The notes under the pieces were generated by a model. It did no database searches and was not told the DNA's origin. It saw only the letters and a program-made list of their open reading frames with translations. Below are positions 1,577 through 60,940 of a stretch of DNA of 64,000 nucleotides, piece after piece. Where the stretch lies: assembly GCA_964373915.1 (NCBI GenBank), contig CAYJWP010000002.1:4312-68311 (forward strand). The letters are read 5' to 3'. The DNA comes from an uncultured Candidatus Saccharibacteria bacterium (GTDB taxonomy: Bacteria; Patescibacteriota; Minisyncoccia; UBA6257; UBA11618). The position numbers and the translations under genes are program-made. Position 1 is the first letter of the stretch. Each line of letters begins with the position of its first letter.

Positions 1577-1582
1577 CTAATT

Positions 1583-24451: not shown

Positions 24452-25822
24452 GTGAAAACAATATTTCTTATCCTCTTTCATACATTAGCTTCTAGAAATA
24501 TTCTTACCACTGATGTTTTTAAAATTTTATCAGCCGATAAAACAATAAAATTGGTAGTTTTCGTTCCTTATTATAAAGAGGATTTTTTAAGACAACTTTA
24601 TGGCCGGGAGAACGTTATTTTTATAGGTCTAGATAAAAAATTTTTAATCGGCTCCGGCATTTCCCAATTATTTAAATGGATAATTTTCGCTCTTATTCCT
24701 ACTTACACTATTAAGTTGCGATTATGGGAAGAAGTTTATAAAGAACGTTCTCTAAAGAAAAGAGCAAAATATTTTATATTGAGATTAATTTCTCTGATGT
24801 TTTCTCGTTCTGTTATAGCGTATAATTTTTTTAGACAGGCTGATTATTTTTTTGCTAATCACCAATCGCTCTTACCTTATTTTCAAAAATATCAACCAGA
24901 TTGTGTTTTTGTAGGCGATGCTTTTAGTGATGTTGACTCTGTTTTTGTCCAAGCGGCAAAAAAAATGAATATTTTTTCCATAGGCATGGTGCGGTCTTGG
25001 GACAATACAACCACAAAGGGTTTGATGAGGGCGGTGCCTGATAAATTGATAACAAACAATGATTTAATTAAGGACGAGGCAGTAAAATTTCACGGCGTTA
25101 AAGCCAGCAGTATTTTTGTGGGCGGTATTCCCCAATTTGACAGATTTTTTCGTGGAGTCCCAGTGTCCCGAGAGGATTTTTTTATAAAGATTGGAATTCA
25201 GCCCGATAAAAAATTAATTTTACTGGCTCCGGCCGGATATCTTTTATCGGATACAGATTGGCAAATTTGTGAAATATTAAAAAAAGGAATAAAAGACGGT
25301 CGCTTGCCAAGAAGCATTCATTTCTTAATAAGAAATCACCCCGCTGATCCTGCGTCCCTTGATAAATTTATACCTGATGAAAATTTTACTATTGAAAAGC
25401 CGGGCGTTTATTTTCAAAAGAAATATAAAGCCACGGAAGTGACAGACGAGGACGACAAGCATTTATTAAATTCACTTTTCCATTCGGAGATGGTCGTTCA
25501 CGTTAATTCTACTATTGGCTTAGATTCTTTACCATTTGACAAACCTCAGATAAAAATAGAATTTGATGGATGGGAAAAGCGTCCTTACTTAAACAGCGTT
25601 CGGCGTTATGGAGATGAGGACCATATGGTTAAATATTTAAAAACTGGAGCTAGCCGTATTGTTGAAAGTTCTGACGAGCTTTTTTATTGGATAGATACTT
25701 ATTTGCAGAATCCGAGATTAGATTCAGAGAATAGAAGGGTAGCCATGAGGGAACAATTTTGTTTTTTAGACGGAAAATCTGGAGAGAGGGTAGGAAAGTT
25801 TTTATTGAGCCAACTTGTTTAA
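24452..25822 (+). CDS. TagB/TagF-like polyol-phosphate transferase family protein (paralog of 18027-19379)
   Basis: GGIPQFDRFF motif. Similar N-terminus MKTIFLIL. Confidence 0.4.
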   Translation: MKTIFLILFHTLASRNILTTDVFKILSADKTIKLVVFVPYYKEDFLRQLYGRENVIFIGLDKKFLIGSGISQLFKWIIFALIPTYTIKLRLWEEVYKERSLKKRAKYFILRLISLMFSRSVIAYNFFRQADYFFANHQSLLPYFQKYQPDCVFVGDAFSDVDSVFVQAAKKMNIFSIGMVRSWDNTTTKGLMRAVPDKLITNNDLIKDEAVKFHGVKASSIFVGGIPQFDRFFRGVPVSREDFFIKIGIQPDKKLILLAPAGYLLSDTDWQICEILKKGIKDGRLPRSIHFLIRNHPADPASLDKFIPDENFTIEKPGVYFQKKYKATEVTDEDDKHLLNSLFHSEMVVHVNSTIGLDSLPFDKPQIKIEFDGWEKRPYLNSVRRYGDEDHMVKYLKTGASRIVESSDELFYWIDTYLQNPRLDSENRRVAMREQFCFLDGKSGERVGKFLLSQLV

Positions 25823-31070: not shown

Positions 31071-32276
31071 TTATAAAAGTCTTATAGCATTAAATAATCT
31101 CTCAGAAGAATTGCCATCAAAGTGTTGAAAGCAAAGTTTTTTTATCTCCCTTCTTTTTTTAATAAAGAGGTCTTTTTTATTTAAAATAAAATTTATTTCA
31201 TTGATCAAACCATTAATATCTAATACTCTTGGACCTGCGACCAGATTTTCATAATGAGACTCCAATCCCTCTTTTTTTAAATATTCTTTATAGTCATGGG
31301 TAAAAAAAACAATGGGTCTGTTCAAAAGCAGGAAATCAAAAAAGATGCTAGAGTAATCCGTTATCAATAAATCAACTTGAGAAAGGAAGGGATAGATATC
31401 CATTTGATTGTCAATTTTAATTATCCGGTGAAAGTTATTATTTTCTAAAGGTAAGTCTTGGAGAAAATGAAATTTGATTAAAAATAACGAATTGTTTTTC
31501 TCCATCAATTTATCAATTGATTCCAGATTATTTATTTTTGTCAACGGAGATTGGATTGGATTATTGTTGGCATATCTAAAAGTGGGGGCGTACAAAATTA
31601 TTTTCTTGTTCTTTTTATTAATTCCTAACTTTCTTAAAGATATTTTGTTTTTGTCAAATAAAATATCATTTCTAGGATATCCGGTAATTAGTATTTTACT
31701 TTTTTCTAAACGAGTCATTTCGGATATTATACCTTGCGTGAAAGTAGATGTAGCCACAAAATAATTGCCGATCTCAATAAATTGCGGAGAACAAACTTCA
31801 GCCACAAATCTTTCAAATCCTTTTAATTTAGGCATTGAAAGTTTCCCTTTTGATTTTTTATACCAAAGATTTTTTATAGGAATGCCATGCCATGTGTTTA
31901 TTTTAACGGCCGCTCCCGAGAGCCAAAAACAAATGTCTTCCAGGTGACTATCGTAAATATAAAATTTTGCTCGAAGCTGATAATAAAGTCCTTTCGGAGA
32001 AAGATGATAAAAGGCTAGAAGATTATTTTTCCTGACTTCCTTTACAACCTTTATATTCTTTGATATCCATACAGCCTTTATTTTTTCTTGATGAGAATCA
32101 TTAATGTATAAGAAAAGATACTTGGGGTTGTCGGCAAATTTAATTCCTTTATAAGAGCCGAAGACCCAAATCTTTTTGCTTCTGGGTGCAAAAAATGATA
32201 AAAAATAGATAATATGTAAAGGTATGAGCTTGGGCAAAAGTCTTACAATGTAGATAATTTTTCTAAATTTAATCAT
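31071..32276 (-). CDS. CDP-glycerol/polyol-phosphate transferase, TagB/TagF family
   Basis: GYPRNDILF and [12 protein letters not shown] are classical TagF motifs. Confidence 0.75.
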
Positions 32277-34905: not shown

Positions 34906-36822
34906 TTAATCAGTATAAAAGGAAAAATGTTCAGCATCCTGCCATTTTTTGAATTTTTTTAATATATTAATCTCGGCTTTAGTTTTATCTTTATTCTTTT
35001 CTATTATCAATAGGTGAACATCGGTTTCTTCTAAGTATTTTCTTTGGCCATCGGTAGCATTAGCTATCAAGCAGTAACGGTAATTATAGCATTCCTCAGG
35101 AAGGAAAACTTTCCTGGGTTCAAAAATCCATCCAAGGTAAACAGCGTCTATATTACCCAAAAAGAGAATATCTCTATCGTTTTTTTTGCTAGCTAATAAT
35201 AACTCCTTTATTTTTTCTTTCTTAATAATATCCACCTCTGCTGTTTTATTTATCATTTCGGTAAAAACGTAGGATTGCTGTTCTAATACTTTGATAAATA
35301 AGTTTGGCACAAGAAAAATAATTGTAAGAAAAATTACAATTTGTCCCATTCTAATAGATAATTTTTCTTTGACTTGTTTTATAAGAACAGAGAGGGGGAG
35401 GAGGCAGAAAACAGCGATGGCGGGATAGAGAAAAATAAAATAGCGAAATTGTTGCCAGCTGGCATAAATGGCGTGATAAGTGACCCAAGGCGTTTTCAAA
35501 TAAATAAATATTAAGGTGAAGCTGATTATTAAAGATAAGAGGGCCGCAGAAATTCTCTTGCTTATTATTACAGTAATCAAAGCTATTAAAAATCCTAAAA
35601 TAGAAAACCAGATAACGCTTATTCCATAAGAGTTAACATAGGGTTGGTCCCAAAGCCCTAGAGGCCGAAGGTAATCATTAAGATAGGCAATGCTACGAAT
35701 ATCTCTGTTGGGTAATAGTTTAAAGAAGTAAAGTAAATAACGGATGATGGCAATAATTGCTAGTGGAAAGGCAATGGCTGTTATTGAGTTCAATATTTTT
35801 TTTATATTTAAAAAAAATTTTTCATACAGCAAACTAGTATCAGCCCAATATTTTTTAATGTAAAGTATTATTATTTCTATAATACTTGCTACACCAATGG
35901 CGATTAAAAAAATAACTAAACTAGCAAAATGAATGTAATAAAAAAGAGCGATAAAGGAAATAATTATCGGCCAGATAATCAAATTTTCTTTAAACCATGT
36001 CCTGTGGTAGTGGATTAATAAAAAACCAAAAATGTAAAGAAAAATTCCTACATTTTGTGGGACTACGGCGGCGGACAGTTGATAATAATTACTCCAGTAG
36101 AAGGAAAAGACAATTAGGGGCGTTAAAATGGCTAATTGCGGTACTGGCAAAATAATGCGTCCAAGTTGGAAAATGGCTAAGGCCTGAAGGATATAAAAAA
36201 AACAACTTATAATCAGGATAAATTTTTGATAGTCATTAAAATTGTCTGCTATGAATGGTATGTAGGAGGCGATTAACAACGCAAATCCCTCTTTGTTGGA
36301 AATGCGCCAAGGCTGAAAAATAGACCTGTTTGTTTCAAGGGGATTATGAAGAAGGCTTTTGGTATAGCCAAACCAAAAATATTGATCAGTTGCCTGATTA
36401 AAATAAGGAACCTCTAGCGAGGAGACTTGATAAGCTACGGTGATAATTAGAATAATAGCAACTAATATCATTGCTCCATCTGAGGCCGAGATTTGTAAAT
36501 TAGTAAAGTTGTTATCGATGAGTTTACGGCTTCTAATTCTTAAAAAAATAATGCTTAGTATTATGAAAAATTCTGCAATAATAATGGTGTATAACTGCAG
36601 ATTATTGGGATAAAAGTAGTTTAGGAGGATAACTCCTAAAGAAATTATTACCTGGGAAGCAAAGCCAAAGAAAGTTGTGAAGAGAAGAAAAGGGATTAGA
36701 TTAAGCTTGTTTTTGTGGATAGCAATTAATGCTAGAATGACACCCGGTAGCAAAAAAGTGATAAAAAATGGAGGGAAAAAGCTAAATATTATAAACTGGA
36801 GCATCTTATAGTGGTCTGCCAA
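34906..36822 (-). CDS. Large polytopic membrane protein (candidate Wzy_C-family polymerase/ligase/O-oligosaccharyltransferase or GT-C); paralog of 37636-39444
   Basis: 638 aa, at least 12 TM helices plus a C-terminal soluble domain of about 130 aa. N-terminal FFPPFFITFLLPG is shared with its paralog. Confidence 0.45.
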   Translation of the reverse strand: MADHYKMLQFIIFSFFPPFFITFLLPGVILALIAIHKNKLNLIPFLLFTTFFGFASQVIISLGVILLNYFYPNNLQLYTIIIAEFFIILSIIFLRIRSRKLIDNNFTNLQISASDGAMILVAIILIITVAYQVSSLEVPYFNQATDQYFWFGYTKSLLHNPLETNRSIFQPWRISNKEGFALLIASYIPFIADNFNDYQKFILIISCFFYILQALAIFQLGRIILPVPQLAILTPLIVFSFYWSNYYQLSAAVVPQNVGIFLYIFGFLLIHYHRTWFKENLIIWPIIISFIALFYYIHFASLVIFLIAIGVASIIEIIILYIKKYWADTSLLYEKFFLNIKKILNSITAIAFPLAIIAIIRYLLYFFKLLPNRDIRSIAYLNDYLRPLGLWDQPYVNSYGISVIWFSILGFLIALITVIISKRISAALLSLIISFTLIFIYLKTPWVTYHAIYASWQQFRYFIFLYPAIAVFCLLPLSVLIKQVKEKLSIRMGQIVIFLTIIFLVPNLFIKVLEQQSYVFTEMINKTAEVDIIKKEKIKELLLASKKNDRDILFLGNIDAVYLGWIFEPRKVFLPEECYNYRYCLIANATDGQRKYLEETDVHLLIIEKNKDKTKAEINILKKFKKWQDAEHFSFYTD

Positions 36823-37402
36823 CTATCTCTATCTCATTAACGCCAATCCAATTTTCTTTTTCTGAAGACGCCTTAATTCTTAACATTGCGGCTGTGAAAA
36901 GTTGGTCTTTAATTGATGTTTCGGAAACACCGGGCACTGTTCCCGTTGCTATTTCTGTCCATTCTTCATCGTCTAAGGATGATTCAAGGCTCCACTTGCT
37001 GATATATTTGGGATCTGTACCTTGCACTCCCCAGAATATTTTGATTGATTTTATCTCATAAACATCAGGCAATTTTACAATGTAATCAATTTCTTTATTG
37101 GCTGGGGCTGCCTGAGTTTTTTTATTACCGTCAACCAATTTGTCGGCTCCTTTGCCGATTTTCAGACTATACTCTGGTGATTCATCAACGTTGCTGACAG
37201 CGGTCATGTCTTGAGCGATAATTTTACTATAACCGCTAAAACTACTGCTTTCTCCCGATCGTGGATTTCCGCAAGCGATAGCTTTAATTGAATCTGGACC
37301 AATTAGAGAGAAACACCATCGCACCCCTATGAAAGTGATTAAGACTGATAAAATAACTGAAGTTTTGATTATTTTTTTTCTGTCTTTTTCGGACAATTCC
37401 AT
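36806..37402 (-). CDS. Membrane-anchored discoidin / F5-8 type C domain protein (paralog of 10238-10786)
   Basis: N-terminal TM helix. KLVDGN ... IKIFWGVQGTD ... KWSLE ... MLRIKAS ... VNEIEIVG pattern. Confidence 0.55.
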   Translation of the reverse strand: MELSEKDRKKIIKTSVILSVLITFIGVRWCFSLIGPDSIKAIACGNPRSGESSSFSGYSKIIAQDMTAVSNVDESPEYSLKIGKGADKLVDGNKKTQAAPANKEIDYIVKLPDVYEIKSIKIFWGVQGTDPKYISKWSLESSLDDEEWTEIATGTVPGVSETSIKDQLFTAAMLRIKASSEKENWIGVNEIEIVGRPL

Positions 37403-37457: not shown

Positions 37458-37649
37458 TCATTCATTAGTAATAGTAATTAAAAAGGAAAGATATAAAACA
37501 ATAAAGAGACTGACTGTGAGTCGATAGTTATAGCCCATAGCTTGAAAAATATCAATGATAATTTTTGTTGACTTTTGTTCAAATAAAGACCAGCTTAAGG
37601 CAATGACTAAAGCCCAAATTATTACTTTGAAATTTTTATTTGGCGGCAT
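37458..37649 (-). CDS. Small single-pass membrane protein (hypothetical)
   Basis: 63 aa with one hydrophobic helix. Sits in-operon between the two large membrane protein genes. Confidence 0.3.
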   Translation of the reverse strand: MPPNKNFKVIIWALVIALSWSLFEQKSTKIIIDIFQAMGYNYRLTVSLFIVLYLSFLITITNE

Positions 37650-39444
37650 AGAAAATAAAATTAGGGGTTTCTCTTTGTTTTGAAAAATAATCCACTATTC
37701 CGCGCAAATTCTCCATCTTAGTATTTTTACCTGTTACAAGAAGGTCAATATTTAAGTTATGAAAATAGTCTGCTTTATCAGAAATCCGATTGCTAACCAG
37801 GCAATTGTAATAATCAAAGCAATCTTTATTGATGGTAAAAATTTGCTGAGGAGCGAAAGCGGCCTGAAGGTAGGGCAGGGGAATCCCCTCAACAATCATT
37901 AAAGTATTCTCCTTGCTATTTTTAATTATTTTCTGTTTTTCAAGCATTAATTCATTGAGGATTTGTCGGTAAGTTATTGATTTAGCGGCAGTATTAGAGT
38001 CTTTATACAAATCCGAGAATAAGGATTCGTGTTGTTTCATAATATAAACAAGGAGGGTGGGTAGTGTTATCGTTATTAAGAAACAAACCATTACTTTCCC
38101 AACAGTTTTAGAAATAAATTTTTCTATTATTTTAACCAAAAAAGCAAAAGGTAATAAAGATAAAATGGATAAACTTGGATAGAGGAATAGAAAATATCTG
38201 AATTTCTGCCAAGTAGCTTTAATAGCATGATATGGTATTAGCGGCGCCAAGAGAAGGAGATAAAATAAAATAAAAATTATTCCTAACATAAATGCCGGTA
38301 GTCTTTTTTTTGATATTATGCCGTGAGTTAAAACTATAATAAAACCGATGACCGCTAGCCAAATTATTATTTCTGAATAAGAATTAATGTAAGGTTGGCT
38401 GAAAAGGTTGTGGGGTCTTATATATTCTTCGTAACCATCTATTGTACTAGGAGGGAAATAGGAGATTAATCCAAGGGCAAAAAGAAAGTATCGGACAAGA
38501 AAAATAATCGTAGGCGGAATAGTTAAAGCAGACACAATTTTAAAATTATTAGTTTTAACACCAACCTCCGTTAATCCGATAAGACTTATCATTCCGATAG
38601 CAATAATAAACATCACAAAGGAGCCAATGTTGGTTAAGTAAAACATAAAAAGAAACGGCACAACGAACTTCCAAGAATTTTTTATTAGTAGCAAGCCGGC
38701 AATAAATAAAAAAATTCCCAAATTTTGAGGAACAATTACGGCATAGAGCAGATAGTAATTTATCCAGTAAAAAATAAAGATAATTGGTGGTGCTAAAAGG
38801 GCTAATGACGGTATGGGTAATATTGATCGTGCTAATTGGAAAACAGCTAGAGCGATTAATAAATATTGGAAATAACTCCATGTAGCAATAAAAAATTGGT
38901 AAGAATCGATATCTTCGTTAATAAAAGCCAGGTATGGGGAGATGATAAAGATGAATCCCGGACTTTGGGCGCTTAATAATTTTAAAAACTGTGGACTTAT
39001 TTCTTGAGGTTGACCGATGAAAGATTTAGCAAGCGCTACCCAATAATATTGGTCGGTAGACTGGTTGAAATAAGTATATCCCGTTCCTATGATTTGAATC
39101 GAAATTAAAGCTATGAGTACGATTGTGAATATAATAAATGCAAAATCATGAAATGATGGACGGATTATTTTCCAACGCAAATCTATTTTTATTAAAACTG
39201 CTAATAAGAAAACAACAGAAATAAAAATTATTATAGAACGAAAGTCAAATCTAGTTATCGTATTGATGAAGACGCTTATGGGAGTGGCTATAACTTGAAA
39301 GAAAAAGCCAAAAATTGCAATGTAAAGTAGTAATTTGACTAGATTAACTTCTTTTTTAAGAAAAATAAGACTAAGGAATAATCCCGGCAGTAAAAAAGTA
39401 ATAAAAAAAGGCGGAAAAAAAGACTCTACTAGAAAATCAGCCAT
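37636..39444 (-). CDS. Large polytopic membrane protein (candidate Wzy_C-family polymerase/ligase/O-OTase or GT-C); paralog of 34906-36822
   Basis: 602 aa, at least 12 TM helices, C-terminal soluble domain. Shares the FFPPFFITFLLPG N-terminus. Confidence 0.45.
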   Translation of the reverse strand: MADFLVESFFPPFFITFLLPGLFLSLIFLKKEVNLVKLLLYIAIFGFFFQVIATPISVFINTITRFDFRSIIIFISVVFLLAVLIKIDLRWKIIRPSFHDFAFIIFTIVLIALISIQIIGTGYTYFNQSTDQYYWVALAKSFIGQPQEISPQFLKLLSAQSPGFIFIISPYLAFINEDIDSYQFFIATWSYFQYLLIALAVFQLARSILPIPSLALLAPPIIFIFYWINYYLLYAVIVPQNLGIFLFIAGLLLIKNSWKFVVPFLFMFYLTNIGSFVMFIIAIGMISLIGLTEVGVKTNNFKIVSALTIPPTIIFLVRYFLFALGLISYFPPSTIDGYEEYIRPHNLFSQPYINSYSEIIIWLAVIGFIIVLTHGIISKKRLPAFMLGIIFILFYLLLLAPLIPYHAIKATWQKFRYFLFLYPSLSILSLLPFAFLVKIIEKFISKTVGKVMVCFLITITLPTLLVYIMKQHESLFSDLYKDSNTAAKSITYRQILNELMLEKQKIIKNSKENTLMIVEGIPLPYLQAAFAPQQIFTINKDCFDYYNCLVSNRISDKADYFHNLNIDLLVTGKNTKMENLRGIVDYFSKQRETPNFIFYAAK

Positions 39445-39461: not shown

Positions 39462-39498
39462 AAAAAACACCTCCGCCAAGACCGGAGGTGTTTTTTTA
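39462..39498 (-). terminator. Rho-independent terminator (bidirectional hairpin) immediately downstream of the giant surface protein gene
   Basis: aaaaaacacctccg-ccaagac-cggaggtgttttttt: a perfect 10-bp GC-containing stem flanked by an A-run and a T-run. Confidence 0.7.
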
Positions 39499-39512: not shown

Positions 39513-42500
39513 CTAATAGACCGTCATTAATTCTGATAGGCGCAATTGAATCTTCTTAATAGTGGCTTGAATCAGTCCGATGAGCAGGTTCTTGACGGCG
39601 GCTTGAGCAGAGCTCTTAACTTCGGCGGTGATGGCATTTCCTTTGGCAAGTTCGCTGATTGCCTTAACAACTTTGGTTACTTCAGCGGTGAGGTCGGTGA
39701 CGCTCATAGAGCCATACTTGTTTGCGGAAGTTGAAGCAACGCTTGCAATATCAGCTTTGGAGCTGTCGATGGCACCGGTCGCCATGTCGGCCTGCGCCAC
39801 CTTGGCGGCTACTTCAGTAGGGATGGTTGCCGCGGGAGCAACAATAACCGGTCCAGTGATTAATCCGCCGCCTCCACCTCCGCCGCTATTTGTTTTAGCA
39901 GAGACTTTGGTAGTGATAGCGGCGGATTCTCCAGAATTATTCAGAGCGGATAAAGTGTAGTAATAGGTCGTGCCAGAATTTAATCCTGTATTGGAATAAG
40001 TACTGACATCGCCAACCGTCGGGTCGCTGCCTACCCTGGGAAAGTCGGCTATTGCCAAGCTGTTGTTGGTGGTGCGGTAAATATTGTAACCGGTGGCGCC
40101 GCTTGACTTTGTCCAAGCAAGATTAATTTGAGAGCCGCTGATAACGGTAGCTGTCAGGCCGGTCGGGGTGGATGGAGCGTCGGCGGCGGCAACAGTCGGG
40201 GCAAAATCGGAAAAGCTGTCAGTCTTGGCGATTAGAAGGTGTTTGTCTGTTCCATTGGCATCTTTAACGAAAGTGGTGGCTAGGTCTTCCCAAGCGCCCA
40301 AATCATTAAGTTTAGAGATTCTAACCTTGTCTCCAGCCGCCAGAATCTGGGCCGCTGTGGAGGTAGCAAACCCCGCGGTTGCCAGATCGGCTGTGGTGAT
40401 AGGAAGCTTCACAATGCCGGTGGCGTCGTGCACTTCTTTGCCAGAGGAATTTGTTGGGGTGATGCTGTATCCAGTGGTTCCGACAACTTTAGACTCCGAT
40501 GTGCTAAAGGCAATCTGGGGCGCCTTTTTCATCTCTAATGTTCCGGAGGTGCTGTCGTTAGCATCGGTAACATCCAATTCTACCGCTAATCCGGCGATAT
40601 TATCATCAATAATGGTGCCCCCGACTGATGGGATAAATGATTTCTTAGTGGTGGTGGCAGAAGAGAAGCCGGGGATACTGGTATCAATGTTTAAGGTGGG
40701 CGAGGAGTTGGCTATATTGTTAGCCGCAACAACAACTGTTGCCGGTGTGCCATCTTGGCGTCCATCATCGCTCTTTACCTCCACTGTCCATGTGCCTGCC
40801 GGCAGAGACATTGAGGCGTTGGCGGTGCTGGTAGCGGTTCTATCAATATCATCAAAGATAACCTTGCCGTCACTGGCTCTGGTAGCGATAACTTTAGCCT
40901 CACCGCCATAATTAGTAGTACTGGAACCTTCTTTAACGGTGATAGAAACATTATCCGCAGAGTTCTGGGCTAAGGACCTCTTGGTTAGTGTGGTATCGGC
41001 TGATACTACCAAAGTTTCTGGCCTGCCGGTAGAGTTGGTGTTGTCTGTAAAACCAGACTTTAGCGACTGAACTGAATAGGTGCCAGCTGGTAAGCTGACA
41101 GAAACGTTAGTGTTGGCGCCGGTTGCTCCGGAAGTGGTGACAAAAGACTTTCTGCCATTGGATTGGTCGGAAAAGACAACGGTAGCTCCCTGGATATTAG
41201 TTCCGGTGGAGTCCTCAATTTCTCCAGTAACAGTGTAGAGAGTGGGAACCACGGATGTTTTATCAATACTGTTAGTCTGTCCGGCAGTGACGACGGTTGA
41301 GGAGGAGAATATTTGGCCGATGCCTTCATTGTTGCACTGGACATTATAGGTGCCAGCGGGAACTTTTAAGCTTAAAGATGATCCTTCATATTTAGCAAAA
41401 GCCCCTCTGCCGCTGGAATCAACTGCGCTGCAGAAAGCACTGGTAACAGTGGCTCCTAAAATCACTGTAACGGTGCCAGGATTACCGACGGCTAGAGTGG
41501 TGTCTGTTGTGGCCCCGCTGGTCACAGCGACTCCTGTTTGCTGGGCCAGCGGACCGGCCCCGGGCAGATTACCATCACAGGTGTAAGTGCCGGTTTTCAT
41601 AGTCAGAGTGACCGTACCATCGGTGCCAGTTTTGCCATGATTGCCGCCGTTTGGTCCATAGCATCCCACAAAAGCTCCTTCAACCGCTGTGCCGCCTTTT
41701 GTAGCCGTTATCTTTACTTTTCCGAAATCAGCGGCGGTGACGGCAATGTTTTGGCCAGTTTTGCTGGTGCCACTCATAGTTATTATTTTACAACCGACTT
41801 CACCGTAAGCCGGAGCAAATCCTGCTAATCTCCACGTGGTTGCGCCGCTTTCATAACCGGGAGGCATATACACGGTGTAGTTACCGTTGGAGTCGGTGGG
41901 GGAGCCGGCAAACCCTCCGGTAGGAGTGAAGTTGGAGCAAGTGTCCCCTGAGGTAACCCTCTGGGCGTCAACGAAGCCATACTTGAGACTATTGCCATTT
42001 TCATCTTGCAATTGGCCGGCTATAGTGACACCGCTCTTGGCTAATTTAATTGTTAGTCCATCTCCTGTGAGAAGGGTGCCGTCTTTGTAAACATCTGCGG
42101 CGGTGTTGCCGTCAGTATTAGAAGAATTAGCTTTAACATCAACGACATTGTCGCCGCTGCAAGGCATGCCGGGAGAACAGGCGGTAACCCTATAGGTACC
42201 GGTAGTGATTTTAAGAACGGCCGTGCCATCAGATTTTGTTTGAGCAAAACTTCCCATCATCTCCACCAAGGCTCCGGTGGAAGAATCAACGCCTTTGCCG
42301 CCTATAGGGAAGGCATCAACATAAACATTAGCAATGCCGGTGGCGCCGTCAGTAACTTTAATTTTAATTTCTTGGTCGGTGGTTTTGAGGGCAAAGGCAA
42401 TGCTTAAATCGGCGCTGGCAACCGCTACTGTTTTAGGTGGCGGGGGCATGAATGTGAATATGGGAACCGGAGGTGGACCGCCATTGTTGAAAGATTCAAA

Positions 42501-45500
42501 AGCAATGTGGGGACCCACAGAACATTGGTATGTGGTATTGGGTTGGAGCTTTATGGTAACGGCGGCCGCTCCACTGCCGTCGGTAGTGCCCTTCTTAACA
42601 ATCGGAGCGGAGAACTGGAAATCAAAGCCTCCGGCGGAACAGAAGACATCAAAATCTGTGGCGGCCGGACCACCGGTAACATTTACTGTCAGAGTTTTAC
42701 CGGTGGTACTCAAATCAACCATTTTAAAATCAATATCTGTCTTATTGCTGTTACTGATATTAACCTGTTTAAATTGTCCGCCACCGCCAAGATTGCCTAA
42801 AGCCGTTGCGTCTTGGCCAAAACTTAACATTACTCCATAGTCGCCGTTATTTAGACTGCCGAATGAATAATCACCGTTGGCGTCGGTTTTTGTCTCAAAA
42901 CGTCCCATGCCCATAAAGGAATCAAGGAAGACTGTTACGCCAGCAATACCGGTATCACCCTCAGCGCAAGCTCCACCGGAAGTTGATGATTTACAAACTG
43001 TTCCAGAAATGGTGCGGCTACCGGCAGTAAGAATATCAAAAGGGGCAAAGTTAACAGTTTGCCCTACTTTTGTTCCGTTAGCGTCTTTTACTATAGCGGT
43101 CACACTTTTTTCTCCGGCGGTGGCAGGATTTTTAATGCCTTTTAACTCAAACATAAGCTGATCTCCTGGAAGCATTACGCTGCCAGTGTGGGTTAGTGTA
43201 ACAGTAAATGTTCTAGCGGCCGCATTGGTTGAGGTAGCGGTAATCGTGGTTGTGCCGGGACCCCAGCCATTGACGTCCTTGTTATCCCATGATTCGGTTG
43301 CTGGAACGACGTTAGCGTTAGTCAGGTCAAATCCAGTAGGAAAAGTGAAAATTACTTGGGCCCCGGTGGTAAGAGCGGCTGGCGCAGGAAATTCACAGCG
43401 GAACTTTCCTGTTTGTTCGGGCAAACGGTTATAAGGGTCACACCTTTCCGGACTTGTCCAGAAATTACCGAAGTTTTTTTGGTCAAAGGTTGGCATATCG
43501 AAACCGCCAAAAGTTCCTCCTTTAGAAGCATCAAAAACAGTACCGCGTCCGAAATCACCAGCACCGGGCACGATTGAGAGCGAGCCGCTGGATTCTTTAA
43601 CATTTTTAACAGTAACCTTAAATTCGGTATTGGGCTGGAAACTTAAACCAGTAACCTCAACAGCCCTGGCTTCGGGACGGGCAGAAAAGGTAGCGCTATT
43701 TAGGTCTATTTTAGTGCCAATGGGATTTTCTACCGTGTAATTTTGCTTATTAATGGCGCCGAATGGACCACCGGTGAAATCAACCGATTGGTCAAATTCA
43801 ATCCACATTCTGTAAGTATCAGCGTCAGCGAACATAACTGTCGGCGCTGTGGCGGTGAAGGCGGCGTCAACAGTGGTGAAACAACTGGTGGCATCTGAAG
43901 CAAAGGCGTTGCCCGTTACATCTTTAACGCCGGTGGTTGCCTTAACACAATATTTGGTGTTTTGGTCTAAGAGCATTTGCAGTCCGACATTAGCGCCAAA
44001 AGATGTTGGGTTGTATTTGAGATTGGCTGTTATAGCCGTCTCGGCTCCGTTGAGCGTTCCACTGGCGTCAGAGTCTTTCCAGAAGATTATGTTACTGGCA
44101 GTCAATGTGGTAGGATCTATAGCTTCGGAGAATTGGGCGAAAATGGAAGGAATGTTCCTTGCTACGCCGGTGGCGTTGGTCTTAGGGTCAACAGAAGTTA
44201 CAGTTGGCGCAGTGACATCAGCGGTGGCGCCAGTGGTGAAGAATAAAATATAGTCTGCCGTTCCGGTTCCGCCAAAACCTAAGCCAGCAACATTAACAAC
44301 ATTTTTCTTAATAGTAAGAACATGTGCTTGATTAGCGGCTAGATTAGCAGCCGGGTCTATTTTTAATAACTTATTAGTAGCGTCCCAAGTTAGGGTGGCA
44401 GCAAGGGCGCTTCCTGACGGAGAGCCAAGAGCGGCTGCTTGGAGGAGGACATTATTGGCGTTGTTAATAGCGTTAGCCGTGCCGTCAGCTAACATATTGC
44501 CAGAATCGCCAGCGGTAAATTGGATATATAAATTGCCGTTGGGAGAAAAACTGGCAGAACCGCTAGACGGAGCGGTGCTTTCTATAGCGGGGGGCAGTTT
44601 AACGTTGGTGGGGTCGTTGGAGCTGGTGCTAAAAGAAATGGTTGAGGTGGCGGCTAGGGCGTTACCGGCCAGGTCTTTAAGGCCGGTGCCGATAGTGACT
44701 ACATAAGTAGAGTTGGGAAGCAGATTAGCTGGAGCGTTATCAAGGCGCAAAGCGGCGCTATTAATAGCGGCGCCTAAGGAGGCAAAGTGGAAGTCATAAC
44801 CGCTTAGGTTGCCCAACGCGCCAGCAGTAGCATGGCCGAAGACGATGTCGCCATCAGACAGGACTGTGGAGTCGGTTACGGCGCCTTGGGCAACCGGTGT
44901 TAACTTACTCATTTGAGTGTTAGCTGCCACACGCGAGTTGGCTGCGGTTTTGCCATCTACAGTGGCAGTTCCTTCAGTGGAATCAGAGGACATATCGCCG
45001 GCGCCTGTCACTATATGCCAGCCATAGCCAGTAGCGCCTGTTAATTGGGCATAAACCATATCACCAACGGAAACCGCCAGAGTTCCGCCGTTAGTAGCGC
45101 CGTTATCGGTAGCGGTAGCGGACGGGGTAATAGCAGAAAAACTGGAACCGGTGCTGAAAGTAGGAGCGGCGCTGCCAACTCCGCTAACACTGGCTAATCT
45201 CAAATCAGCGTTATTAACAGCGGCGCCGGCAGTAGCGATAGCCCAACCATAAGTGTCCCAATTGTTGGAACTAGTGTCGGGATTGGCGCTGGAACTAACT
45301 AAAAGAATATCACCGGTAGAAATGCTTGTAGTTCCGGTGACAACACCGGTGGCATTAGGAGTGGCAATTTTAATTACTCTTTGAGGGCCGTAGAGAGGGA
45401 AATTATTAACAGCGAAGGTGCCGCCTGTCTTAGTGGCGTTAGTTACAATACCGATTTCAGCGGGCATATTTTCATGCTGAAAGAGTACTATATCACCGGC

Positions 45501-46433
45501 GGCGAAAGTGGCGTTGCAGTCAAAGCCGACCGCTATATTATGTTGAAAGTTGGCGAAGCAGTTGGTAGGGCTCCATGGTTTGCTCCAGCGGGTGGAGGCG
45601 GCCCATGCGGGGGCGCCCCCCGACGGCACCAGGTCAAAACCGTTGGGAAAGCGTTTTAAACTAAAAGGCACAGCGGAAGCGCTTCTAGTAAAGGTAATAT
45701 TTGCTGGATTAATCGTTGTCGGATCCATATCGCTGGCGTCAGTGAAATTGGCGTTAAAGAAGGAGCCAAGAGGAACATTGGTATCGCCATTTTTAGGAAA
45801 GGTGCTGGCAGTGTTGAGAACAGGAGCTGTGTTATCAACCACGTGGCTGGTTGTTCCGGTAAGAGCGGTGGTGGTTATAGCAGAGCCGGTTACGGTGATA
45901 CCGTTAGTGGCGACATCCATTTTAAATTTACGGCCTTCGGTAGGGCTTGCCGCTAAAGTGCCCACTACAAAATAAGTGGTGGCGCTGGCTGATCCTGACA
46001 GAGCGTTAGTGCCCGTGGTGATGGTGGTTGCGCTACCGACATTGACAGTGGTCTGGGTGCCGAGCAATGTATCAGTGCCGGCAGAGAATATTCCGTCGCC
46101 ATTGTCTTTGTAAACAGATAAGCTGGCAAAATCGGCGGCTGTAATAGCGGGGGAACCTGCGATGACAGTTACCGCAACGCTGTCTAATGTGTCATCAGAG
46201 ACAGCGTCAGCGTCTTTGAGGCCGAATTTAACGACCGCAAATACGGCGGCCGATTTATGTCCGACTGCTGGGCGAAATTCAACATCCGCCGGCTGGGCGG
46301 TAACGGTTGCGTTACCAGTGGCGGCTTTTGCCGGTAGCAGATAAGCGGTAAGACTTAATAAAAAAATGACAGCGAAAATTGCTGTCCGAACAACCGACCT
46401 ATTATAAAAACGACCGATAAAACTATTTTCCAT
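39513..46433 (-). CDS. Giant secreted surface protein (2306 aa), Thr/Gly/Ala/Ser-rich, with Ig-like/FN3/carboxypeptidase-regulatory-like repeats; candidate S-layer or surface glycoprotein
   Basis: Signal peptide (MENSF...LLPAKA|ATG). FN3-like segment PSTPTGLTATVISGSQINLAWTKSSGATGYNIYRT...TYYYTLSALNNSGES. CarboxypepD_reg-like segment TISGTVCKSS...KTDANGDYSF. GGGGGGG linker. Amphipathic C-terminal tail. Confidence 0.8.
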   Translation of the reverse strand: MENSFIGRFYNRSVVRTAIFAVIFLLSLTAYLLPAKAATGNATVTAQPADVEFRPAVGHKSAAVFAVVKFGLKDADAVSDDTLDSVAVTVIAGSPAITAADFASLSVYKDNGDGIFSAGTDTLLGTQTTVNVGSATTITTGTNALSGSASATTYFVVGTLAASPTEGRKFKMDVATNGITVTGSAITTTALTGTTSHVVDNTAPVLNTASTFPKNGDTNVPLGSFFNANFTDASDMDPTTINPANITFTRSASAVPFSLKRFPNGFDLVPSGGAPAWAASTRWSKPWSPTNCFANFQHNIAVGFDCNATFAAGDIVLFQHENMPAEIGIVTNATKTGGTFAVNNFPLYGPQRVIKIATPNATGVVTGTTSISTGDILLVSSSANPDTSSNNWDTYGWAIATAGAAVNNADLRLASVSGVGSAAPTFSTGSSFSAITPSATATDNGATNGGTLAVSVGDMVYAQLTGATGYGWHIVTGAGDMSSDSTEGTATVDGKTAANSRVAANTQMSKLTPVAQGAVTDSTVLSDGDIVFGHATAGALGNLSGYDFHFASLGAAINSAALRLDNAPANLLPNSTYVVTIGTGLKDLAGNALAATSTISFSTSSNDPTNVKLPPAIESTAPSSGSASFSPNGNLYIQFTAGDSGNMLADGTANAINNANNVLLQAAALGSPSGSALAATLTWDATNKLLKIDPAANLAANQAHVLTIKKNVVNVAGLGFGGTGTADYILFFTTGATADVTAPTVTSVDPKTNATGVARNIPSIFAQFSEAIDPTTLTASNIIFWKDSDASGTLNGAETAITANLKYNPTSFGANVGLQMLLDQNTKYCVKATTGVKDVTGNAFASDATSCFTTVDAAFTATAPTVMFADADTYRMWIEFDQSVDFTGGPFGAINKQNYTVENPIGTKIDLNSATFSARPEARAVEVTGLSFQPNTEFKVTVKNVKESSGSLSIVPGAGDFGRGTVFDASKGGTFGGFDMPTFDQKNFGNFWTSPERCDPYNRLPEQTGKFRCEFPAPAALTTGAQVIFTFPTGFDLTNANVVPATESWDNKDVNGWGPGTTTITATSTNAAARTFTVTLTHTGSVMLPGDQLMFELKGIKNPATAGEKSVTAIVKDANGTKVGQTVNFAPFDILTAGSRTISGTVCKSSTSGGACAEGDTGIAGVTVFLDSFMGMGRFETKTDANGDYSFGSLNNGDYGVMLSFGQDATALGNLGGGGQFKQVNISNSNKTDIDFKMVDLSTTGKTLTVNVTGGPAATDFDVFCSAGGFDFQFSAPIVKKGTTDGSGAAAVTIKLQPNTTYQCSVGPHIAFESFNNGGPPPVPIFTFMPPPPKTVAVASADLSIAFALKTTDQEIKIKVTDGATGIANVYVDAFPIGGKGVDSSTGALVEMMGSFAQTKSDGTAVLKITTGTYRVTACSPGMPCSGDNVVDVKANSSNTDGNTAADVYKDGTLLTGDGLTIKLAKSGVTIAGQLQDENGNSLKYGFVDAQRVTSGDTCSNFTPTGGFAGSPTDSNGNYTVYMPPGYESGATTWRLAGFAPAYGEVGCKIITMSGTSKTGQNIAVTAADFGKVKITATKGGTAVEGAFVGCYGPNGGNHGKTGTDGTVTLTMKTGTYTCDGNLPGAGPLAQQTGVAVTSGATTDTTLAVGNPGTVTVILGATVTSAFCSAVDSSGRGAFAKYEGSSLSLKVPAGTYNVQCNNEGIGQIFSSSTVVTAGQTNSIDKTSVVPTLYTVTGEIEDSTGTNIQGATVVFSDQSNGRKSFVTTSGATGANTNVSVSLPAGTYSVQSLKSGFTDNTNSTGRPETLVVSADTTLTKRSLAQNSADNVSITVKEGSSTTNYGGEAKVIATRASDGKVIFDDIDRTATSTANASMSLPAGTWTVEVKSDDGRQDGTPATVVVAANNIANSSPTLNIDTSIPGFSSATTTKKSFIPSVGGTIIDDNIAGLAVELDVTDANDSTSGTLEMKKAPQIAFSTSESKVVGTTGYSITPTNSSGKEVHDATGIVKLPITTADLATAGFATSTAAQILAAGDKVRISKLNDLGAWEDLATTFVKDANGTDKHLLIAKTDSFSDFAPTVAAADAPSTPTGLTATVISGSQINLAWTKSSGATGYNIYRTTNNSLAIADFPRVGSDPTVGDVSTYSNTGLNSGTTYYYTLSALNNSGESAAITTKVSAKTNSGGGGGGGLITGPVIVAPAATIPTEVAAKVAQADMATGAIDSSKADIASVASTSANKYGSMSVTDLTAEVTKVVKAISELAKGNAITAEVKSSAQAAVKNLLIGLIQATIKKIQLRLSELMTVY

Positions 46434-57873: not shown

Positions 57874-58224
57874 ATGATTAAAACTATCTCTCCTATTTTT
57901 CTCTCCCGACTGGCTTTGGCATTTGTTTTTCTTTACGCGGCCATCTCCTCGCTGGCCGATCCCCTAAGCTGGGTGGGTTTTTTCCCTGCTTGGGTCGGGG
58001 CCTCTAATTATTCGTTGGCCTTTTTTTCAATTGGGGAGGGCTTGCTTGCCTTATGGCTAATCTCCGGCAAAAAGGGATTTTACGCCGCCATCGCCGCGGC
58101 TGTGGTTTTGGCGGTTATCGTCCTTACTAATTTAGAATCAATGATTATTGTTTTTCGCGACGTTGGCCTTTTCTTAGCGGCTTTATCTCTGGCGGTTTTG
58201 GAGAAGAAAGCTGATAATTTATAA
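57874..58224 (+). CDS. DoxX-like small membrane protein
   Basis: 116 aa, 3-4 TM helices. Architecture typical of the DoxX family. Confidence 0.4.
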   Translation: MIKTISPIFLSRLALAFVFLYAAISSLADPLSWVGFFPAWVGASNYSLAFFSIGEGLLALWLISGKKGFYAAIAAAVVLAVIVLTNLESMIIVFRDVGLFLAALSLAVLEKKADNL

Positions 58225-59916
58225 AACTGTAAAAATATTAATCCCCTCTACGCGGCCCTTAACTTGGGCGGAGCCCAAAGATTTAAATTGGTAAGCGCCT
58301 TTGATTTTTTTGACAGTCGGTTCGCCGATAATAATAGAAGTTTGGTACTCCTTATTTAAGCTCTCAAGGCGGGAGGCGACATTGACCGTGTCGCCGATGG
58401 CGGTGTAGTCAAAGCGCTGGCTGGAACCCATGTTGCCGACGATAGCCGGGCCGGAGTAAAGGCCGATGCCAATAGCGATTTCTATGCCGATTTCTTTTTT
58501 AAGAATTTGGTTGAACTCCTCCACTTTCTTAATCATGCCCAGAGAAGCTTTCAGGGCTTTTTCGGCGTGGTCGGGGTCGCTGAGCGGCGCTCCCCAAAAA
58601 GCCATGACGGCATCGCCAATATACTTATCCACAACTCCGTCGTTTTTGAGAATTTCTTCGGTGACCGATGTAAAATAGCGATTGATGATATCCACCAGCT
58701 GGTGGGGGCTGGTTTTTTCAGAGAGCGAGGTGTAGCCGCGGATGTCGGAGAACAGGACGGTAATTTCTCTCTCTTCTCCGCCCAGCGCCACTTTTTGCGG
58801 ATTTTGCAGTATCTGCTCCAGCACCTCCGGGGAGACATATTTGCCGAAAACTCCCCGCATCTCCCTTTTTTCTTTATCAACTATTAGATAGCGGAAAATA
58901 ACCAAAGCGATAGTGGAGAGAATCCAAGCAAGATGAATGTGGATGATGTTAGCCGCTATGCCTTGCTGGAAGAGTATAATTTGAGCGATAAGATAAAGAA
59001 CGCCTGCCCCGACGGAGGCAAAAACAAAACTATTAATGGAGCGCAGTTTTAAAGAAAACACTACGGGCATAAGGATGGCAAAAAGGAGCCAGAGATAGGC
59101 GAGCGGGCTAGTGAGAGGGCGGAGGCGATAGCCCATAATGAGCATGTTAGCGATATTGGCATGGATTTCCACACCCGCCATTTCTTCCCCTTTGGAAAGG
59201 GGCGTGGGGCGGCTATCGTGCAGGTCGGGGGCGGTGGCGCCGATGAAAATTAATTTATTACTTAACTGATCGGACAAATCCTCCTCAAATAATCTCCAGA
59301 AAGGGATAGCCCTAACCGAACGGGGAGGGGCGGCGTAAACAATACGATTAATTTCCCCAAGGTTTTGTTCTTGGGGTATTTTTTTGCCAGCGGCTTTCAG
59401 AGCAGAGTAGCCAAGCGAATAAACGCCGTTCTCTGTTCTTAAAGGAAAATTTCTGACAATGCCGTCTTTGTCCTGGATGGTGTTGATGTAGCCGAGAGCG
59501 GTGCGGCCGGTGAATTGAGGCAGGGGACGAGTGAAATTGGGCCCGATTTTTTCCAAGGGCATTACGATTGGAAAAAAGGTTGAGCTCAAAACATTGGAAA
59601 GATAGTAATCATCCTGCGGCCCGAGCCGAGAAGGTTCGGAAAAAATGACATCAAAAGCGACAGCGGCCGGCCTGCTTTGATTTATTTTTAAGAGGGCGCT
59701 GGCAAAAAGGCCGCGAGGCCAGGGCCACTGGCCGAGGCGAGACAGGGACTCATTGTCAATGGCAATAATAAGGATATCCTGATGGATGGGTTTATTAGAA
59801 AACAGTCGGTCTTCAAGAAAATTTTCCAATCCGGAGAAAAGGCCAGCGGAAAAAGAGGCGAAAACTATTAAAAATACTATAAAACTGACCAGACAATATC
59901 CTTTTAAGTTTTTCAT
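58219..59916 (-). CDS. CHASE2 sensor domain-containing class III adenylate/guanylate cyclase
   Basis: N-terminal TM plus extracytoplasmic domain. TM bundle. C-terminal VLFSDIRGYTSLSE ... KYIGDAVMAFWGAP cyclase homology domain. Confidence 0.8.
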   Translation of the reverse strand: MKNLKGYCLVSFIVFLIVFASFSAGLFSGLENFLEDRLFSNKPIHQDILIIAIDNESLSRLGQWPWPRGLFASALLKINQSRPAAVAFDVIFSEPSRLGPQDDYYLSNVLSSTFFPIVMPLEKIGPNFTRPLPQFTGRTALGYINTIQDKDGIVRNFPLRTENGVYSLGYSALKAAGKKIPQEQNLGEINRIVYAAPPRSVRAIPFWRLFEEDLSDQLSNKLIFIGATAPDLHDSRPTPLSKGEEMAGVEIHANIANMLIMGYRLRPLTSPLAYLWLLFAILMPVVFSLKLRSINSFVFASVGAGVLYLIAQIILFQQGIAANIIHIHLAWILSTIALVIFRYLIVDKEKREMRGVFGKYVSPEVLEQILQNPQKVALGGEEREITVLFSDIRGYTSLSEKTSPHQLVDIINRYFTSVTEEILKNDGVVDKYIGDAVMAFWGAPLSDPDHAEKALKASLGMIKKVEEFNQILKKEIGIEIAIGIGLYSGPAIVGNMGSSQRFDYTAIGDTVNVASRLESLNKEYQTSIIIGEPTVKKIKGAYQFKSLGSAQVKGRVEGINIFTVL

Positions 59917-59923
59917 TTTTATA

Positions 59924-60940
59924 TCAACCTCGACTGTCTATTTTTTGAGGTACAAAACCAACAACCTCAAAAAATGGGCTTTGGGCTGTGAATTCTTTGC
60001 CGGTGGCGGAATCTTTCCAACCGACGGCTACAGCCCCTTTGGAGGCGCCTAACTCGGAAACTTCCGGAGCTAATTTAGCGATAAAAGCGCCGGGTTTTTC
60101 AAAGAATCCTATCGGACCGATAACCTGCCATTGGGCGGCAGCGGTAATAATTTTTCTCGAGCCATCGCTATTAACCAGAATTGCGTCAAACAATAGGCGG
60201 TCGTTTTCCACCACTCTTCCAAGATTTGCTTGGGTTTCCAGAATTATTTTTACTGGGGTAGTGTTTGCTATCGTATCAACTTTAGAGGGAACGGCGGCGA
60301 TTTTTTTAGCGACAGTTTCCGGGGTGATTTCAATTTGGTCGCCGGCGGTGACCAGTGTTTCGGTGCCGGGTATTACCTTTCCGGTTGCTGGATTAACAAC
60401 GGAAACAAAGACCGAGTCTTTGACGACTTTTATGTCGGACTTGCCGTTGGCGTAAGCGACACTGAATTCGGTGCCGCGGACGACCGCGACAGCGTTGGGA
60501 GTTTTAACTTCCCATGAGGATTGGGGAGTGGCTAGGGCAACAACTTTGGAAAGTATTTTGCCGGAGTTGATGAAAATACTAACCACTAAACTTTTATCGG
60601 ACTTACCGTAAGAGCTGTTTTTGATAATAAAAGAGGTGTTGGGTTCTATGTAGGCGGCGGAGCCGTCGGCGAAATGCAATTCTCCCACGCCAGCCTCTCC
60701 GGTTTTGACGGTTTGCCCCTCGTTTAATTCGTCTCCGGTGCGGAGTTCGCGATCGCTTTCCGTAACGCGCGGCTTAAAAACTTCTATCCAAGGCTTAGTG
60801 GAGGCTTGTTGATTTTCAATTGGATTGGTTGTGGTTGAGGGGGCTGAAGCGGAGTTGATAAAATAGTAGCCGGCGAGAAAAACAACAAACAAAATTGCTA
60901 AGGCGGTTAAGAGCCTTAACTTAAGAATTTTTGCAAACAT
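59924..60940 (-). CDS. FecR-domain protein (periplasmic, N-terminal anchor)
   Basis: VVRGTEFSVAY FecR signature. N-terminal TM. Confidence 0.65.
   Translation of the reverse strand: MFAKILKLRLLTALAILFVVFLAGYYFINSASAPSTTTNPIENQQASTKPWIEVFKPRVTESDRELRTGDELNEGQTVKTGEAGVGELHFADGSAAYIEPNTSFIIKNSSYGKSDKSLVVSIFINSGKILSKVVALATPQSSWEVKTPNAVAVVRGTEFSVAYANGKSDIKVVKDSVFVSVVNPATGKVIPGTETLVTAGDQIEITPETVAKKIAAVPSKVDTIANTTPVKIILETQANLGRVVENDRLLFDAILVNSDGSRKIITAAAQWQVIGPIGFFEKPGAFIAKLAPEVSELGASKGAVAVGWKDSATGKEFTAQSPFFEVVGFVPQKIDSRG

Follow-up and report, generated by a model that had tools for sequence, protein, structure and literature searches.

Introduction

It is well established that the modules PG_binding_1, SLH and SH3 bind the cell wall without a covalent linkage. 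Conserved surface-protein bodies that exchange such anchors have been documented in Firmicutes (10.1101/2025.04.02.646754) and across S-layer proteins (10.1101/2024.05.28.596244), and an anchor module is typically common to several secreted proteins of one genome (10.1101/2025.04.02.646754). In SbsC of Geobacillus stearothermophilus, domain 1 is an all-alpha wall-binding domain, which binds the secondary cell wall polymer and connects through a flexible linker to Ig-like domains rich in beta structure (PMC13635256). Here we analyzed a 64-kb stretch of DNA (64,000 nucleotides, hereafter the window) from contig CAYJWP010000002.1 of an uncultured Candidatus Saccharibacteria bacterium, and focused on a gene at 39513..46433 on the minus strand. 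The gene encodes a secreted giant surface protein of 2,306 aa that ends, after a polyglycine hinge, in a tail resembling none of these anchors.

A large part of bacterial diversity belongs to the Patescibacteria, also called the candidate phyla radiation (CPR), most of which have yet to be cultivated and which live attached to other cells. To our knowledge, next to nothing has been established about the way in which these cells retain surface proteins on their envelope. In this study we define a family of giant surface proteins that extends across the phylum and whose C-terminal slot is exchangeable. In that slot the window protein carries a previously uncatalogued and very rare helical domain, which also occurs as free small secreted proteins and which would fill a known architectural role. 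The domain may be an attachment or docking module.

Architecture of the giant protein

The open reading frame (ORF) comprises 6,921 nt from an ATG start to a stop codon at 39513-39515. A protein derived from NCBI on a 72.7-kb contig (P0001; P and L numbers are our handles for proteins and loci) is 100% identical to its product. The N-terminus reads MENSFIGRFYNRSVVRTAIFAVIFLLSLTAYLLPAKA, followed by residues ATG, and has the n-h-c layout of a Sec-type signal peptide (residues 1-37; 46323..46433, minus strand). The only transmembrane (TM)-like stretch of the whole protein lies here, at residues 14-36 (Kyte-Doolittle mean of 2.1 in a 19-aa window), and Ala37, which occupies position -1 of the AxA site, does not vary across an alignment of 14 family sequences. 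Cleavage is predicted after AKA, that is after Ala37, as read off the AxA motif. The protein has a mass of roughly 240 kDa.

The signal peptide is followed by the conserved body of the family, a chain of Big_5 and prealbumin-like beta-sandwich domains (residues 38-2084; 40182..46322, minus strand) recognised from Pfam matches and about 190 invariant columns in 14 homologues; near its end stands the junction motif, SFSDFAP in this protein (residues 2073-2079). Pfam identified four Big_5 stretches (E 2.7e-25), SdrD_B (E 2.5e-7) and CarboxypepD_reg (E 4.6e-12), the best stretches being at residues 739-854, 1151-1228 and 1734-1801, respectively, all encoded on the minus strand. Next comes a fibronectin type III domain (FN3, Pfam fn3; residues 2088-2174; 39912..40172, minus strand; E 3.5e-9), which matches PDB entry 3mpc, an Fn3-like protein (E 8.8e-7), and forms beta strands in the AlphaFold2 (AF2) model. 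In the PDB search, FN3 domains were the only relatives of the giant protein among solved structures, and NCBIfam gave zero matches for it. A hinge of seven glycines (residues 2184-2190; 39864-39884) and a 15-residue Pro/Ala/Val linker (residues 2191-2205), together at 39819..39884 on the minus strand, are disordered in the AF2 model, with a predicted local distance difference test score (pLDDT) below 50. The remaining 101 residues (2206-2306; 39516..39818, minus strand) form the C-terminal tail domain, a predicted three-helix bundle.

No LPxTG motif was found anywhere in the protein. A C-terminal TM segment is also absent, the maximum Kyte-Doolittle value in the last 130 aa (19-aa window) being 1.38. 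Pfam detected neither an SLH domain (PF00395) nor a PG_binding_1 domain (PF01471), whether the full-length protein was searched (SLH at E up to 0.1) or the tails on their own (E up to 1); the relative L023, the positive control for SLH, scored E 9e-16. The first-pass annotation of the window had described a signal peptide, beta-sandwich repeats, FN3, a Gly7 linker and an odd tail, in a protein lacking LPXTG, SLH and a C-terminal TM segment. The translation, the motif and Pfam searches and the hydropathy scans agree with that description, and the translation contains the tail sequence quoted there.

An exchangeable C-terminal slot

A word-index search recovered homologues P0002-P0016, which share 31-53% identity with the window protein over 77-99% of the query (E 0 to 4e-173), and a further giant protein at locus L005 is 57% identical to it. 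NCBI names P0005 and P0011, both from the Parcubacteria group, 'Ig-like domain-containing protein'. With the 14-sequence alignment as query and one genome per GTDB species, 43 family loci were confirmed by tblastn. They are mostly labelled as Patescibacteria (Kaiser-, Uhr-, Doudna-, Vogel-, Falkow- and Peregrinibacteria, Microgenomates, 'Saccharibacteria', Paceibacterota and 'Patescibacteria group'), the exceptions being five labelled uncultured Gammaproteobacteria and three labelled simply 'bacterium'. Family proteins are 2,000-3,500 aa long. On these sequence comparisons the window protein, which has all of the features tested, is a member of a known though unstudied Patescibacteria family of giant Ig-like surface proteins.

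The invariant columns span the region from the signal peptide to a (S)HFSDFAP motif (residues 2073-2079), in which S2075, D2076, F2077 and P2079 are invariant in the 14 homologues. Past this junction the family sequences diverge entirely. What follows is an optional FN3 domain, present in some members only, in most cases a hinge rich in Gly/Ser and, at the end, one of several modules. Near the C-terminus, at the junction between body and module, 18 of the 43 loci have five or more consecutive glycines.

The modules were counted by a regular-expression census of 36 complete C-termini, so that the numbers are approximate. PG_binding_1, in one to five copies, ends about 19 of the 36 (precomputed Pfam assignments for the P-series homologues; L021, E 6e-10). 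SLH was found once, in L023 from Peregrinibacteria, by the Pfam match that served as control above, and P0004 carries SH3_3 according to precomputed Pfam assignments. Two uncharacterised modules recur: 'GERAGVVNSF...AIAYSGA' in about seven loci and 'GTLV...YLI' beta repeats in three or four. Five other loci lack a recognised module, among them L044, which has an Ig-like Pfam match. The helical tail was found by profile search in L005 alone of the 43 species-representative loci.

The GERAGVVNSF module is about 200 aa long and has no Pfam match; a listing by locus places it in about 7-8 of the 43 (L009, L017, L031, L033, L035, L040, L042 and L045). The beta-repeat module, of the pattern 'GTLV..DG..YLI..G.K..F', occurs in L013, L014, L018, P0009 and P0012. 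Both modules are candidates for further anchor domains. At locus L004, two more secreted proteins beside the giant homologue P0007 bear PG_binding_1 (758-4573, 1,271 aa; 7865-9076, 403 aa), which fits the idea that the surface proteins of one genome share an anchor module. The 1,271-aa protein is of the size of predicted Patescibacteria S-layer proteins.

The window protein, P0002 and the L005 protein form a small clade, being 53-57% identical to one another and at most 38% identical to the rest. This clade, which bears the tail, has 18-19 Cys against 2-8 in other family members. The Cys residues of the window protein (residues 292-1700) are often closely spaced (292/306, 829/851, 998/1013, 1147/1156 and 1419/1425, among others), which is suggestive of disulfide pairs.

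Thr makes up 13.4% of the window protein compared with 4.0% of the other 48 ORFs in the window. The first-pass annotation had taken the large Thr fraction to indicate dense O-glycosylation. The fraction is indeed large. However, Thr accounts for 12.0-15.6% of residues in 16 of 16 family members examined, regardless of their C-terminal module; Thr-richness is therefore a trait of this family of beta-sandwich proteins and no specific sign of O-glycosylation.

The tail domain

P0001 and P0002 have tails that can be aligned from end to end with 38-42% identity and that contain the conserved core AI(K/R)xLLxGLIQxTIxxIQxRxxEL. From an alignment of four sequences, AF2 predicted a three-helix bundle with a pLDDT of 87.5 and a predicted template modelling score of 0.73, whose helices span tail residues 2-29, 40-59 and 65-100; the single-sequence model gave the same tail helices together with FN3 and the disordered hinge. 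The tail domains have in common the core motif AI(K/R)xLLxGLIQ(H)TIxIIQxRxxEL. Membership of the domain family was defined by the core AI(K/R)xLLxxxIQxTIxxIxxR and a profile match over about 85-95 residues. The last helix comprises 36 residues, among which L79, I83, T86, I90 and R93 (tail numbering) are invariant, and displays a hydrophobic stripe of a/d-like heptad spacing.

The domain is very rare. A profile search (hmmsearch) of 1.84 billion cluster representatives returned P0002 (E 7.7e-49), P0038 (E 2.1e-6) and P0039 (E 1e-4). A second search with a four-sequence profile, with E values of 1.7e-34 to 4.7e-12, added P0040-42, and a cluster look-up added P0043. In a local profile search over all fetched loci, L005 (E 3.3e-23) was the only further giant protein with the domain. 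The family thus comprises about eight members: P0001, P0002, the L005 giant protein, P0038, P0039 and P0040-43. A scan of genome, metagenome and viral contigs with alignment A3 found no more loci, a scan of JGI metagenome contigs with alignment A6 found only one contig of 1.4 kb, and a six-frame phmmer search of the 64-kb window found no second gene for the domain. A word-index search with the tail only missed even its own query; it was not used as a negative, and the exhaustive profile search was used instead.

Two apparent relatives were set aside. P0037 matched the profile with E 4e-9, but the match is spurious, as P0037 is an FN3-repeat protein that matched through profile positions 4-56, a low-complexity linker. 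In L008, L011, L030 and P0013, amphipathic helices next to PG_binding_1 resemble the last tail helix in composition only; a profile search at E up to 1 with filters off found no homology.

Neither Pfam nor NCBIfam has a consistent family match for the tail domain, and a PDB sequence search with the tail gave no match. Foldseek found no match to the tail in the PDB below E = 1, the best being generic three-helix bundles at E above 1. The tail matches no known anchor in any of these searches. It is present in the two closest homologues of the window protein (53% and 57% identical), but absent from relatives of 31-38% identity, which carry other modules. According to sequence comparison and structure prediction, the tail is a real, conserved and folded but very rare and uncatalogued domain.

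The description of the tail in the first-pass annotation as an Ala/Lys/Ser-rich helical segment was right in that the segment follows Gly7 and is helical in the AF2 model. Its richness in Lys, however, belongs to this copy only: the tails of the two homologous giant proteins are acidic. The net charge of the domain is +2, -8 and -5 in the three giant proteins and +1 to +11 in the small proteins.

Small secreted proteins with the same domain

Besides the giant proteins, the domain is found on small proteins. P0038 (151 aa), P0039 (160 aa) and P0041-43 consist of a signal peptide and the tail domain. Such stand-alone secreted proteins are 126-160 aa in length, and P0040-42 are 95-126 aa. In P0039 a run of eight glycines directly follows the signal peptide. 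The L005 giant protein, encoded on contig JBDRBW010000002, and P0039, encoded on contig JBDRBW010000023, come from the same assembly, JBDRBW01 (GCA_043822345.1). Hence the domain is present on a giant protein and on a small secreted protein in one genome.

The genes for small tail-domain proteins (L001, 86-568; L049, 1441-1821; L002, 6001-6381) share a chromosomal neighbourhood that is loosely conserved. The gene order in L049 is SIMPL, the small protein, the small and large subunits of ribonucleotide reductase, FtsZ and FtsA; in L001 about 4 kb separate the small gene from FtsZ/FtsA. In L002 the small gene is 2.5 kb downstream of TruB, which is 54% identical to the TruB of the window, where TruB directly precedes the giant gene. 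This pattern may hint that the giant gene captured a resident small gene.

Possible roles of the tail

The tail occupies the slot in which most relatives carry recognised wall binders. By this analogy it may be an alternative, non-covalent envelope-attachment or docking module that was swapped in at the hinge, a reading whose chances we consider about even. The giant protein would be exported by the Sec pathway and its signal peptide removed, leaving a long beta-sandwich chain that leads through FN3 and the flexible Gly7 hinge to the three-helix bundle. Because the mature protein would have neither a covalent nor a membrane anchor, the exchangeable module after the hinge would be the sole candidate for its retention. 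Domain swapping or gene fusion at the hinge could have brought in the helical domain, in an ancestor common to the window protein, P0002 and the L005 protein. As its partner we would favor, with low confidence, a protein, such as the small secreted paralogues, or self-association of helical bundles over an anionic teichoic-acid-like polymer, because the domain is also found on free small secreted proteins (once in the same genome as a giant protein) and because its charge is not conserved. The analysis itself shows the architecture, the family membership and the variability of the modules, and for the tail its conservation, predicted fold and rarity; the removal of the signal peptide, the anchoring role (by analogy of position) and the kind of partner we infer. 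The suggestion of the first-pass annotation that the tail is a new anchoring module thus keeps its general part, as the domain is conserved, uncatalogued and placed in a wall-binder slot; its proposed link to TagF enzymes and a polyol-phosphate polymer is considered below with the genomic setting.

Several points weigh against an attachment role. The anchor role is an argument from positional analogy. Other C-terminal modules of the family are likewise uncharacterised, so the slot may hold non-anchors too. If the N-terminal signal is uncleaved, the modules could be distal tips that bind host cells. The tail-domain family has only about eight members, which makes for thin conservation statistics, and the 64-kb window has no gene for a small paralogue.

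Among the other explanations, the tail could be an oligomerization module, whose bundles or long last helix form trimers or hexamers that join giant proteins into a fibre or a lattice node, attachment to the cell being otherwise provided. The length of the last helix and its conserved a/d-like stripe would suit such a role, and the C-terminal helices of the Corynebacterium glutamicum S-layer protein PS2 form a hexameric coiled coil (10.1101/2024.05.28.596244). Single amphipathic helices also flank PG_binding_1 in some relatives. However, AF2 gives a compact monomeric bundle with high confidence, stand-alone small proteins have no obvious use for a pure oligomerization domain, and the giant protein would be left without any other retention signal. 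We regard oligomerization as unlikely to be the role of the tail.

CPR bacteria are often epibionts. It is conceivable that an uncleaved N-terminal signal anchor tethers the giant protein and that the C-terminal module is a distal host-binding tip, the swapping of which tracks host range. PG_binding_1, SLH and SH3 of the relatives could equally bind the wall of another cell, and extreme diversity of modules on a conserved body is what adaptation to host range would produce. Three observations make this rather improbable. The canonical n-h-c signal peptide with its invariant -1 Ala in the 14 homologues favors cleavage; PG_binding_1 is also borne by the other secreted proteins beside the L004 homologue, as self-anchoring predicts; and the small tail-domain proteins lack an adhesin body and bear signals that look cleavable.

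The attachment reading can be narrowed to a helical docking system specific to Patescibacteria. The bundle of the giant protein would pair with small secreted or wall-associated proteins of the same domain, such as P0039, which would hold the giant protein on the ultra-small cell, and the fusion would have arisen by capture of a small gene at the polyglycine hinge. In this specific form the proposal is a long shot. If it is true, it would represent protein-protein anchoring distinct from all known wall-binding modules. An anchoring or docking role in general would mean a new attachment principle, and would offer a compact and tractable handle for study of the CPR envelope, namely a domain of 100 aa with a confidently predicted fold. 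If the tail is merely a structural spacer, it would be one more variant of modular surface-protein architecture.

Genomic setting

The giant gene abuts an island of about 39 kb (window 1-39500) that is devoted to glycan biosynthesis and has a low G+C content (GC) of 0.32-0.39, compared with 0.45-0.51 in the rest of the window. The island encodes NeuB, UDP-GlcNAc 2-epimerase, two to three Glyphos_transf (TagF-like) proteins, two CTP_transf_3 cytidylyltransferases, an FGGY kinase, an NTP-transferase, an iron-containing alcohol dehydrogenase (Fe-ADH), methyltransferases, GT2/GT4 glycosyltransferases and a flippase. Possibly this is a surface-glycan locus that is hypervariable or came in by horizontal transfer. 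The two clear Glyphos_transf genes are at 31071-32276 on the minus strand (E 6e-66) and at 24452-25822 on the plus strand (E 5e-7).

The first-pass annotation had proposed that the tail binds a polyol-phosphate polymer made by adjacent TagF enzymes, so that the anchor and the synthesis of a teichoic-acid-like polymer would form one unit. In its favor are the tail's place in the anchor slot and an island that combines Glyphos_transf genes with cytidylyltransferases, a sugar kinase and a flippase. There are also precedents: in Firmicutes, enzymes for secondary cell wall polymers co-distribute with cognate anchor domains (10.1101/2025.04.02.646754), and the helical anchor of SbsC binds an anionic polymer (PMC13635256). 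The TagF-like genes are, however, not adjacent. The closest is at least 7.2 kb and five genes away from the giant gene, directly downstream of which lie two polytopic membrane proteins.

The boundary between the gene and the island is sharp. Exactly where the giant gene has its stop codon, GC drops from about 0.50 to about 0.32, and the 68-nt gap from this codon to the next ATG (39444) contains a strong terminator-like hairpin with a 14-bp stem and A-tract and T-tract flanks (39462..39496, minus strand; consensus scan). Given these flanks, the hairpin could act in both directions. The DNA that codes for the tail has a GC of 0.47-0.52, like the gene body and unlike the island. On account of this agreement, which holds for both GC and GC at third codon positions, we reject the idea that the tail arrived horizontally along with the low-GC island.

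Comparison with L005 points in the same direction. The L005 giant protein has the same tail, but no Glyphos_transf/TagF gene is present in the 10 kb upstream or the 3 kb downstream of its gene. The flanks encode an HlyD/ABC/MacB transporter, a sigma factor, APS kinase and a deacetylase, and no flanking gene is shared with the window. In this single comparison, L005 and the window have in common only the giant gene and one ORF of 119 aa resembling a small transporter, which matches a 124-aa ORF near 12.9 kb of the window. Moreover, the charge of the tail varies among the giant proteins, at odds with a conserved surface for a polyanion, whereas the polyanion-binding domain of SbsC is positive (PMC13635256). 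With the hairpin, the GC step, L005 and the charge all speaking against it, a polyol-phosphate polymer from the TagF-like enzymes of the island is a very unlikely ligand. These results take away the specific support for a teichoic-acid-like ligand, while a glycan ligand in general is possible.

The two membrane proteins directly downstream of the giant gene are paralogues of 602 aa (37636-39444, minus strand) and 638 aa (34906-36822, minus strand). They are 34% identical (E 4e-95); both carry the motif FFPPFFITFLLPG in their N-terminal region and a soluble part of about 130 aa at the C-terminus. They were not recognisable as glycosyltransferases or ligases, as Pfam gave no match even at E = 10 and the PDB gave none. 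Conceivably they act in the island as glycan polymerases, ligases or GT-C-like enzymes of a novel kind. Between them, overlapping the start of the second, is a gene for a 198-aa protein with an F5/8 type C (discoidin, carbohydrate-binding) domain (36806-37402, minus strand). A 718-aa multi-pass membrane protein without a Pfam family is also encoded in the island (10747-12903, minus strand). On the other side of the giant gene, a gene for a CHASE2-adenylate/guanylate cyclase (58219-60940, minus strand) adjoins a gene with a FecR domain, and 63000-63554 encodes a pyruvoyl-dependent arginine decarboxylase.

Comparison with known systems

The window protein shares with the Patescibacteria giant Ig-like proteins the signal peptide, the Big_5/CarboxypepD_reg body, the SHFSDFAP junction, the Gly/Ser hinge and the presence of a terminal module. 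Most members of the family end in PG_binding_1 and others in SLH or SH3, whereas the window protein ends in a three-helix bundle. The S-layer proteins predicted for Patescibacteria are 692-1,274 aa long according to the supplement of 10.1101/2024.05.28.596244; the giant protein is far longer and may be an accessory surface protein.

Among Gram-positive bacteria, the swappable anchors SLH, CWB2, SH3 and PG_binding_1 provide the parallel of a conserved body with alternative anchors, as in the giant family. Such anchors are common to several secreted proteins per genome, a pattern paralleled here by the L005 giant protein and P0039 in one assembly. However, the window tail matches none of these anchors, the window protein tested negative as a sortase substrate and as an SLH or PG_binding_1 protein, and no co-distribution with cognate polymer genes was seen in the comparison with L005.

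In C. glutamicum PS2, a helical C-terminal segment faces the cell and mediates assembly and anchoring (10.1101/2024.05.28.596244). PS2 ends in a transmembrane helix and its segment forms a hexameric coiled coil, whereas the window tail lacks a TM segment and, by prediction, folds as a compact bundle.

In mechanism, SbsC of G. stearothermophilus comes closest to the window protein: it is a secreted protein built like beads on a string, with an all-alpha domain hinged to beta-rich domains. SbsA and SbsC have Big_5 domains in common with the window protein, Big_5 being the 'SbsA Ig-like' domain of Pfam. The SbsC anchor is N-terminal, about 228 aa long and positive, whereas the window tail is C-terminal, about 100 aa long and of variable charge, and matches no PDB entry in sequence or fold.

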